A stretch of DNA of 24,421 bases from a virus. Taxonomy: Duplodnaviria > Caudoviricetes. The position numbers and the translations under genes are program-made. Each line of letters starts with the position of its first letter. The first letter of the stretch is position 1. Below the pieces are notes generated by a model, which did not search any database, was not told the origin of the DNA, and saw only the letters and a program-made list of their open reading frames with translations. Of this stretch, positions 20,388 through 21,959 are shown in pieces. The stretch lies in the IMG/VR virus record IMGVR_UViG_3300037483_000526, positions 1 through 24,421 of that record; one strand, written 5' to 3'.

Positions 20388-20418
20388 AAAAGCCTTAACG
20401 AAAGTTAAGGCTTTTTTT
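20388..20418. terminator. Bidirectional intrinsic terminator between the capsid gene and the convergent HTH gene
   Basis: AAAAGCCTTAAC-GAAA-GTTAAGGCTTTTTTT with a GNRA loop. Confidence 0.9.
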
Positions 20419-20436: not shown

Positions 20437-20670
20437 TTACTCAGCTTCTTTAACTAATTTATATTTAGCGTAATGAATTTTATCACCAAATTTATTCTTC
20501 CCTTCACACATTTCACTTGTGATTTCATGACCATCCTTCTTCAATCCGTGGATTGTTGCGGCTAATCTAGTATCACCTAATTGATTGATAGCATAAAATG
20601 GTTGGATTGTCTTCTCTGGATTTGTCATCATTGCGTCCAATACTCTTTGCTTTCTCGTTACTTTTGCCAT
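20437..20670 (-). CDS. Small winged-helix DNA-binding protein (HTH_39-like)
   Basis: TRKQRVLDAM...I.P..AI..LG.TRLAATIH.LKKDGH.I.S......NKFG....YAKY.L. Confidence 0.75.
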   Translation of the reverse strand: MAKVTRKQRVLDAMMTNPEKTIQPFYAINQLGDTRLAATIHGLKKDGHEITSEMCEGKNKFGDKIHYAKYKLVKEAE

Positions 20671-20889: not shown

Positions 20890-20918
20890 AATAATTAAAT
20901 TTTAGTAAAAATACAAAT

Positions 20919-20950
20919 AAAAAACGGGAAATGCAATGCAAATCCCGTTT
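20919..20950 (-). terminator. Intrinsic terminator after the Zn-ribbon gene
   Basis: Minus strand AAACGGGA-N13-TCCCGTTT followed by TTT. Confidence 0.7.
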
Positions 20951-20982
20951 ATTTATAGTTAACTCGTTTAGTTTATTTTATA

Positions 20983-21822
20983 TCAAATTCTATCACCACA
21001 CATTGGGCAGAATTTGAAGTTTACTTTTGATTTATTACCACAGTTAGTACAGTATCTTTTAACTTGCGTATCTTCAACTGTATTTACCTTATGAGATATT
21101 GGTAACATTTTATATTCAATTTTATAAAATGGTCTAGTTTCCCAATTCATATAAACCGTTGTAAGGGTTTGGTCTGAATAGGAGCCCTTTTCAACCCTAC
21201 CAGTTTCAATAGACTTTTTAGAACGTAATTTCTTTCTAGGTTCCTCAAGTGGTACTGACTTCCCCTCAAGAGTTTGGTCCATGAAGCTCAATGAATCTAA
21301 TGTTGGGTAGGAATCAATAGTTTGATTATAGTTTACGTTAGTTGTTGTAAGTGTTCCAATAATACCTCTAGCATCAGTTGTAGTATTTCCCCATGACCCA
21401 TTGTTAATGTTCAAGGTATTACTACCATAAAAAGTCGGGTTGTAATCGATGGGAATTGACTCTTTATAGAATTCCACTTTAAAGTCACCATTATCCTCAA
21501 TAGCCGCTCTACTCTCAGAGGTGTTTGCAACCTCATAGGTGTCAAATTTAAACTTCTTGGCTACATCGATATACCTATCAAGAAAAACTCTCTGAGCGGG
21601 CTTTAAAACAAGTCCACCCTGTGCGATTGGTTTTCCGTTTAAGGAAATCTTTGCTAAGATTGTGTCTTTAGTCGGATTGAATAATTCGATTTGAAATTCT
21701 TGCCCTTTTTGTAGATAGTAAGTTGGGACTTCTGAACTCTTACCATAGACTTTAATCCTACTTTTGTTTATGGCTAAGTTAGCCGTGGGTGTAGGAACCC
21801 CTTCATTTGTAATTTTGTACAT
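20983..21822 (-). CDS. Hypothetical protein: N-terminal beta-rich domain, N/T-rich linker, C-terminal zinc ribbon
   Basis: C-terminal CTNCG...FKFCPMCG; N-terminal YLQKGQEFQIELFNPT...LVLKPAQRVFLDRY. Confidence 0.8.
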   Translation of the reverse strand: MYKITNEGVPTPTANLAINKSRIKVYGKSSEVPTYYLQKGQEFQIELFNPTKDTILAKISLNGKPIAQGGLVLKPAQRVFLDRYIDVAKKFKFDTYEVANTSESRAAIEDNGDFKVEFYKESIPIDYNPTFYGSNTLNINNGSWGNTTTDARGIIGTLTTTNVNYNQTIDSYPTLDSLSFMDQTLEGKSVPLEEPRKKLRSKKSIETGRVEKGSYSDQTLTTVYMNWETRPFYKIEYKMLPISHKVNTVEDTQVKRYCTNCGNKSKVNFKFCPMCGDRI

Positions 21823-21851
21823 TTTTTAACTTTTTAATATTTGTTATTATC

Positions 21852-21914
21852 GTACCAATCTTTTCACTTCCTTTTGAAAGTTCTAAAGCCAAATCAATGA
21901 CTCAAGACTGATAC
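21852..21914 (-). ncRNA. Candidate structured cis-regulatory RNA (three-way junction) in the 5' UTR
   Basis: GUAUCAGUCUU/AAGAUUGGUAC (11 bp) encloses GAGUCA/UGGCUU and ACUUUC/GGAAGU; five G-U pairs form only on the minus strand. Confidence 0.55.
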
Positions 21915-21929
21915 TAGAGTTAACTTTTA

Positions 21930-21959
21930 CTAATATAATATAAATCGAAAAATTGTCAA
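21930..21959 (-). promoter_or_regulatory. Host-RNAP-type promoter for the Zn-ribbon gene
   Basis: Minus strand TTGACA (21959-21954), N16, TATATT(AG) (21937-21930). Confidence 0.55.

Follow-up and report, generated by a model that had tools for sequence, protein, structure and literature searches.

A conserved three-way-junction RNA with a k-junction-like core in the leaders of an Ig-like/zinc-ribbon gene family of large phages

The virus record IMGVR_UViG_3300037483_000526 of IMG/VR raises the question of whether the leader of one of its genes contains a functional RNA structure and what such a structure could do there. The stretch analysed, positions 1 to 24,421 of that record (24,421 nucleotides), is referred to below as the window. 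An earlier note, made from the letters alone, proposed that the 63 nt at 21852..21914 on the minus strand, in the leader of a gene for a protein with a zinc ribbon, form a strand-specific three-way junction. The sequence, the position and the helix lengths given there were exact. RNAfold yields a three-way junction with helices of 11, 6 and 6 bp at −19.7 kcal/mol (z −3.89), and none of 200 shuffles was as stable. As assigned from the fold and from covariation, helix P1 joins 21914–21904 with 21862–21852, P2 joins 21903–21898 with 21891–21886 and P3 joins 21881–21876 with 21871–21866; these features, and all others below unless indicated, lie on the minus strand. The five G-U pairs counted in the earlier note are present (two in P1, two in P2 and one in P3), and the fold works in the mRNA sense only, the plus strand of the same interval reaching merely −2.9 kcal/mol. 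The GC-content of the element is 35%.

The element is preceded by a predicted promoter of the sigma-70 type (TTGACA-16-TATATT, 21932..21959) with 11 of 12 consensus matches, and the arrangement TTGAC...TATATT is seen again in many homologue leaders. From the promoter position, transcription probably starts near 21925. The distance from the end of the −10 box to the start of the element is 17 nt, slightly more than the approximately 15 nt of the earlier note; the 29 nt between the end of the element and the ATG were correct, and neither a U tail nor the hammerhead word CUGAUGA is found in the element. The failure of that note to recognise a known riboswitch is borne out by Rfam: the whole window scanned at E ≤ 5 has no match at the element, the 151-nt leader at E ≤ 10 has chance matches alone, and none of the leaders of 12 homologous loci matched a family. 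There is no second copy of the element elsewhere in the window.

The comparison with homologue leaders, proposed in the earlier note as a check, showed that the fold is conserved and that its pairs covary. A descriptor leaving the junction letters unconstrained found the fold in 155 of 166 loci; nine of the other leaders were too short and two were without the fold. Among 103 distinct elements of this set, two of them out of register, the first junction strand ends in GA in 99 and the second starts with RA in 102. A descriptor with fixed junction letters matched 177 of 191 leaders, distant homologues included, and the 14 non-matching leaders have the same junction by eye, with bulged helices. 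The controls gave a background of 6–9% in shuffles (37/573) and in other upstream regions (20/232, several of which are upstream of family genes themselves), with 4 matches in the 191 antisense leaders. In a sequence-only MAFFT alignment of 66 chosen leaders, double changes occur in 19 of 21 pairs and 97% of cells are paired; no shuffle out of 500 scored as high, and controls with slid pairing dropped to 35–48%. All 21 pairs covary in the model alignment of 89 copies (A6), which is biased toward the model used to build it. Mapped onto a protein tree with 156 members, nine pairs near the junction show 130 independent two-sided changes; most of these pairs are demanded by the descriptor, and the near absence of breaks on the tree is therefore by construction. 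In P1, G.U cells far outnumber A.C cells (416 against 25), and selection therefore acts on the RNA.

Lak-C1, Lak-B5 and a further six records of huge phages share the fold, at protein identities of 30–39%. The A+T-rich Lak leader escapes both search models though its fold is identical, so weak copies can escape the search. Helices and loops are variable, and the junction is the conserved part of the element. Three wobble pairs in P1 and P3 are strikingly well kept (U.G in 75, G.U in 68 and U.G in 69 of the 89 copies), the two in P1 forming a nearly two-fold symmetric site. Taken as a secondary structure, the three-way junction can be regarded as practically certain. The results support the part of the earlier interpretation that saw a new, conserved and strand-specific cis RNA motif of the 5′ untranslated region (UTR); of the two roles offered with it, the protein-binding or autoregulatory one would fit and the riboswitch-like one is disfavoured, as discussed below. 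Three features had escaped the earlier note: a core resembling a k-junction, a helix between the 5′ end and the 3′ UTR that encloses the gene, and copies of the element in front of a second gene, which encodes a vWA protein.

The conserved core consists of NNGA opposite RA(A). In k-junction nomenclature, the strand UAGA (21882..21885) corresponds, by conservation in homologues, to the predicted L2, L3, G1b and A2b, and the strand GAA (21863..21865) to the predicted 2n and A1n plus one extra nucleotide. In the 89-copy alignment A2b and A1n are adenine in all 89 copies, and both are invariant in the sequence-only alignment of 66 leaders as well; G1b is G in 84 and L2 is U in 85. Position 2n is A in 52, G in 35 and U in 2, with 30 A/G exchanges on the tree, the extra nucleotide after A1n is A in 76, U in 12 and C in 1, and L3 is variable. 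In the structural reports (PMC4005666, PMC10573300), the k-junction is described as having three helices, C, NC and T, the last being coaxial with the first. The C helix is followed by a loop, of which the first two bases are paired with connecting nucleotides, and by G1b and A2b; after the NC helix come G2n and A1n, and then the T helix. The element shares the helix order described there (Lilley; Wang et al. 2014, PMC4005666), with P2 as C, P3 as NC and P1 as T, and it shares the two conserved adenines. No unpaired base separates P1 from P2, in a register fixed by covariation, A2b, A1n and G1b are conserved as tandem sheared pairs would need, and the pairing of L1/L1.1 with c1/c2, followed by unpaired L2 and L3, is reflected in covarying columns 29/60 (A-U/G-C/U-A) and 28/61 (G.U/G-C/C-G).

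Two departures stand against these similarities. The T helix does not start right after A1n: by our own mapping to the Escherichia coli thiamine pyrophosphate (TPP) junction, whose sequence is printed in PMC4005666, one extra nucleotide intervenes, and the register of P1 is fixed by covariation. The consensus also differs at 2n, where A is more frequent than G, and the c2.L1.1 pair is mostly G.U; an A.A pair at 2b-2n is reported in the k-turn Kt-23 (PMC4005666). Because of the extra nucleotide and the frequent A at 2n, the element is described here as k-junction-like, from its sequence pattern, and not as a proven member of the class; that the junction kinks as a k-junction does is predicted, and we consider it rather probable.

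PMC10573300 lists k-junctions in TPP riboswitches, the ribosome and the DUF-3268 RNA only, with no function known beyond architecture, and PMC8191799 gives DUF3268 as the sole k-junction among 224 motifs. Judged from the published description, the DUF-3268 RNA (Li et al. 2023, PMC10573300, PDB 8ITS) shares with the element the lack of an insertion between G1b and A2b, and its authors found that it folds at low ion concentration; the stand-alone DUF-3268 RNA, like the element, has no known function. A TPP riboswitch was rejected as an identity for the element, since P2 and P3, short hairpins whose loops vary, have no ligand-binding internal loops and Rfam gives no match to the TPP family; the element also differs in its place in huge-phage 5′ UTRs. 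The DUF3268 RNA family is in Rfam. It gave no match either, and the downstream protein has no DUF3268 match in Pfam, so this identity was likewise dismissed. The hammerhead ribozyme, with its core of CUGANGA and GAAA, does not fit junction strands of 0, 4 and 3 nt and also has no Rfam match. Neither Rfam nor the literature consulted on k-junctions and DUF-3268, phage structured RNAs, huge-phage junctions and DUF7918 describes the element. It may be one of the more than 10,000 unannotated candidates of PMC10690425; supplements 3–6 of that work contain no match to words of the motif, and file 4 none to two sample-id prefixes and PF13240, the rest of the supplement being outside the search.

The second feature concerns the ends of the message. 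The 9 nt at the inferred mRNA 5′ end (21917..21925) are perfectly complementary to 9 nt of the 3′ UTR (20957..20965), and the minimum-energy structure of the 1013-nt window transcript contains the resulting helix P0 (9 bp, 21925–21917 with 20965–20957). Just past the 3′ arm, the whole-transcript fold contains a terminator-like hairpin with a U run (20915..20950), which a simple terminator scan did not flag. When the 22 nt ahead of P1 were paired with the 70 nt past the stop codon, z was below −2 in 141 of 163 distinct cases, with pairing energies of −16.9 kcal/mol for cognate and −8.9 kcal/mol for non-cognate partners; internal pairs of P0 include 17 G.U and 3 A.C. A helix of this kind, connecting the 5′ and the 3′ UTR of one mRNA, has a precedent in the hbs mRNA of Bacillus subtilis, where, according to Braun et al. 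(2017, PMC5737220), a 14-bp helix modulates cleavage by RNase Y. Both cases combine a short mRNA, a structured leader and a long-range UTR-UTR helix of about 9–16 bp. The present helix differs in its start at the inferred 5′ end, in its covariation across clades and in lying next to a conserved junction, and no nuclease site is known for it. In three loci (L014, L111 and L162) an extra hairpin-like insert lies between the 5′ arm and P1, and arm and junction therefore need not adjoin. In LR756500.1 (locus L433) the 3′ arm is located in the interval from the family gene to the vWA gene and extends into the 5′ strand of P1, so that the closing helix of the junction could be partly displaced by end pairing in this operon.

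The genes behind the element were identified by three overlapping motif-first scans of IMG/VR (119, 60 and 36 loci), the first of which covered 19 of the 64 parts of the collection. The 19 full folds of the first scan precede 17 family genes and one vWA gene, one being cut off by the contig end. Among 52 full folds of the second, 43 precede the family gene and two a vWA gene, six rows come from two contigs with nuclease insertions and one is cut off; the corresponding numbers for the 15 full folds of the third are ten, three, one nuclease insertion and one cut off. With the exception of nucleases that have inserted where the Ig-like/zinc-ribbon gene begins, the element was thus shown to precede members of two gene families only. 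A gene-first survey found the motif in 3 of 75 vWA leaders and in none of 750 shuffles, and the model confirmed the same three among 74 loci. The vWA copies total five (L175, L426, L438, L440 and L519). Whole-record searches with one or both models per record, 150 candidates being scored in the largest IMG/VR records, gave one copy in each of eight family-bearing huge-phage records (G002, G003, G012, G013, W02, W05, W06 and W07) and in each of G004, G005 and W04. Two copies were found only in LR756501.1 (735 kb), where the matches lie before the family gene and before a vWA gene, 107 kb apart. In LR756500.1 and in G007/G010 the vWA gene directly follows the family gene behind a single shared leader. 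Adjacency in some phages and one copy before each gene in LR756501.1 suggest a two-gene regulon, and the shared neighbourhood and leader point to linked functions of the two genes.

Several arrangements around these leaders are worth recording. In L400/L401 (around 1201–2151), L420/L421 and L075, an open reading frame (ORF) for a GIY-YIG-like nuclease follows the native leader where the family gene begins, and the L420 version forms a fusion with the first ~19 codons of that gene. Both nuclease contigs have a second, near-identical leader after the nuclease, ahead of the downstream family gene, so that the inserted nuclease appears to bring its own copy of the regulatory RNA. A gene of the HAD_SAK_2 type (RNA-repair HAD), assigned with Pfam on the L175 copy, occurs upstream of the leader-bearing vWA gene, two genes away in L175 and directly adjoining in L519.

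The gene downstream of the element in the window (20983..21822) encodes a protein of 279 aa, predicted from homologues and structure models to combine an immunoglobulin-like (Ig-like), DUF7918-like beta-sandwich with a C-terminal CxxC...CxxC zinc ribbon. Its 1774 homologues were collected; Pfam returns only sub-threshold zinc-ribbon matches, at the C terminus, and the Atlas provides a structural link to DUF7918 clusters. The models, with a pLDDT of 61 for the window protein and 83 for a shorter homologue, show a beta-sandwich split by a long disordered insert. Look-alikes are found among uncharacterised proteins of large DNA viruses, and structural look-alikes also in bacteria. The DNA-binding domains of p53 and Grainyhead are merely among the tied rows of fold matches and were not taken as evidence.

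What the element does can be approached from these observations. Compact conserved leaders bound by the product of their own gene, some with three-way junctions, are known from ribosomal-protein genes and from the T4 gene 32 operator. The present element resembles them in being tied to one gene family and in having few invariant bases, and it differs in that the downstream protein is an uncharacterised Ig-like/zinc-ribbon protein, the start region is not overlapped and no Rfam leader family matches. The reading that we favour, tentatively and at somewhat less than even confidence, is that of a protein-bound post-transcriptional operator on the Ig-like/zinc-ribbon message and, in some phages, on the linked vWA message. 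It fits best because of the small junction, the two invariant adenines, the free loops, the lack of an expression platform and the strict linkage to the gene and its operon partner. The NNGA and RA(A) strands would form tandem sheared pairs and a k-junction-like kink, with P1 stacked on P2 without an intervening nucleotide and P3 folding back sharply. A protein would read the kinked shape and possibly also the well-kept G.U wobbles of P1 and P3; the simplest candidate is the Ig-like/zinc-ribbon product itself, acting in feedback, which would also explain the second copy before the vWA gene in the same genome. The bound protein would set the translation or the lifetime of the message, and the end helix may bury the 5′ end and help to protect the complete message.

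A number of observations weigh against the operator. In the listed copies the element ends 15–38 nt before the AUG and does not cover the start region. The extra nucleotide after A1n and the preference for A at 2n separate the junction from that of TPP riboswitches. Lak, the two LR756501 copies and all but one of the five vWA copies have no P0, so the junction is the universal part and P0 is not. As for the protein, its best PDB matches are tied Ig-like domains with Z of 6–7, none above 7.1 and none clearly RNA-binding, Foldseek found no match in PDB at E ≤ 0.001, and the basic patch ahead of the ETG motif is not universal, with at least four K/R in 110 of 194 sequences and 0–1 in 61. The link to the second gene is narrow as well: most vWA genes are without the motif, L175 and L519 are closely related, and a search of two incomplete vWA records (G001, 50% complete; G006, 10% complete) gave no match to the family gene.

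Among the other explanations, an architectural stability element has the best claim, at a level that we would call possible and on balance unlikely: junction and end helix would give the message a compact, closed shape that withstands ribonucleases or guides them, without a dedicated ligand. The reach of P0 from the inferred 5′ end to just before the terminator in most copies, its place in the fold of the whole window transcript, the hbs precedent (PMC5737220) and the fact that no role beyond architecture is known for k-junctions (PMC10573300) all speak for it. However, the junction is kept in the phages where P0 is absent, and a plain hairpin would protect a 5′ end, which leaves the invariant junction bases and the restriction to two genes without explanation. 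An aptamer for a small molecule, built on the k-junction as in TPP riboswitches and placed over two functionally linked genes, is improbable. Its compactness, its TPP-like topology, its occurrence before two gene families and the three conserved wobbles, which could be contact sites, would suit such an RNA, but the C and NC helices lack conserved internal loops, where TPP binds, and are short hairpins whose loops vary. Furthermore, the leader has no terminator, a structural switch acting on the start region is not predicted, no Rfam riboswitch matches, and few bases outside the junction are invariant. A signal for self-cleavage or processing, whether a ribozyme or a site where the end-paired message is cut or circularised by a phage nuclease or ligase, is very unlikely: ends held beside a structured junction would be well placed for processing or ligation, yet no ribozyme core or Rfam ribozyme match is present, only two of the seven unpaired junction nucleotides are invariant, and P0 is not universal. 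Finally, an operator or inverted repeats of a mobile cassette in the DNA, or mere chance, is hardly credible and largely refuted. The P1 strands resemble short direct repeats in the closest clade, and nucleases insert at the family gene, but pairs covary instead of staying identical, G.U exceeds A.C in P1 and in P0 (416:25 and 17:3), and the descriptor matches 177 of 191 sense leaders against 4 antisense ones.

A switch that licenses only full-length messages, in which the 5′ arm would pair before the AUG (off) and then be captured by the 3′ UTR arm once transcription ends (on), is about as improbable as the aptamer, and was pursued through energy calculations. The word AGUUAA at −9..−4 (21826..21831), absent from the 19 other printed start regions of the window, is weakly complementary to the 5′ arm and could be its alternative partner. 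Complementarity of the arm to about −10..−5 uses clade-specific words and is significant by permutation (p about 5 × 10⁻⁵ at 15 and 20 clusters, 0.002 at 6); pairing of at least 4 nt is seen in 89 of 149 leaders and in 204 of 745 shuffled tails, and 75 of 130 beat shuffled start regions. On the other hand, the own arm is the best partner in only 4–7 of 15 clusters and in one of nine in an ensemble test, its pairing makes the start region on average only about 0.8 kcal/mol more costly to open, and in the window the 5′ arm favours another short partner. With leader and 3′ UTR joined by a linker, the own 3′ UTR made opening more costly in 76 of 139 cases and less costly in 19; in whole transcripts the cost was 2.47 kcal/mol truncated and 2.43 kcal/mol complete, being lower in two and higher in one of 20 chosen. 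A translation switch driven by end pairing thus failed both energy tests and was rejected. The complementarity between arm and start region looks selected. Since mRNA structure close to the start is reported to tune translation in Bacteroidetes (PMC6847099), a weak effect of arm pairing is still conceivable.

The window itself is a piece of a large T4-like phage, since it encodes a gp23-type major capsid protein and, as read from translations, terminase, portal and prohead protease. GenBank has named relatives of the downstream gene in 22 phage records, which range from 460 to 735 kb and include 15 Prevotella Lak phages. These records and start regions without Shine-Dalgarno motifs make a Bacteroidota host plausible. 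One scan of GTDB returned a single homologue with leader and end helix (L165, PLXT01000052.1), on a 103-kb contig filed in a Methanobacterium (archaeal) metagenome-assembled genome and probably representing a misbinned phage contig. Elsewhere in the window, the word TATTTAT stands 15–25 nt ahead of several genes of the structural region (upstream of 5706, 14236, 16276 and 23393) and also occurs in many homologue leaders; it is a candidate late promoter. A bidirectional terminator-like hairpin of 12 bp with U runs on both sides (20388–20415) separates the capsid gene on the plus strand from a convergent 77-aa winged-helix gene (HTH_39, 20437–20670, minus strand) and accounts for weak Rfam matches to BSnc120 and MicC.

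The element ranges from lake phages to Lak megaphages, and its more than 150 natural variants tied to defined genes make up a test set for the folding rules of junctions and a route to function. The end helix adds a well-supported case of an end-paired mRNA of bacterial type. The furthest-reaching possibility, which we hold to be doubtful though worth stating, is that the Ig-fold/zinc-ribbon protein is a new RNA-binding protein for which a stand-alone k-junction is the recognition site, both on its own end-paired mRNA and on that of its vWA partner, the two genes forming one regulon; if true, a k-junction would for the first time have a regulatory role exerted through protein binding. A first functional handle on a protein family of huge phages with 1774 homologues, and on phage vWA proteins, comes from the shared leader and the operon link.
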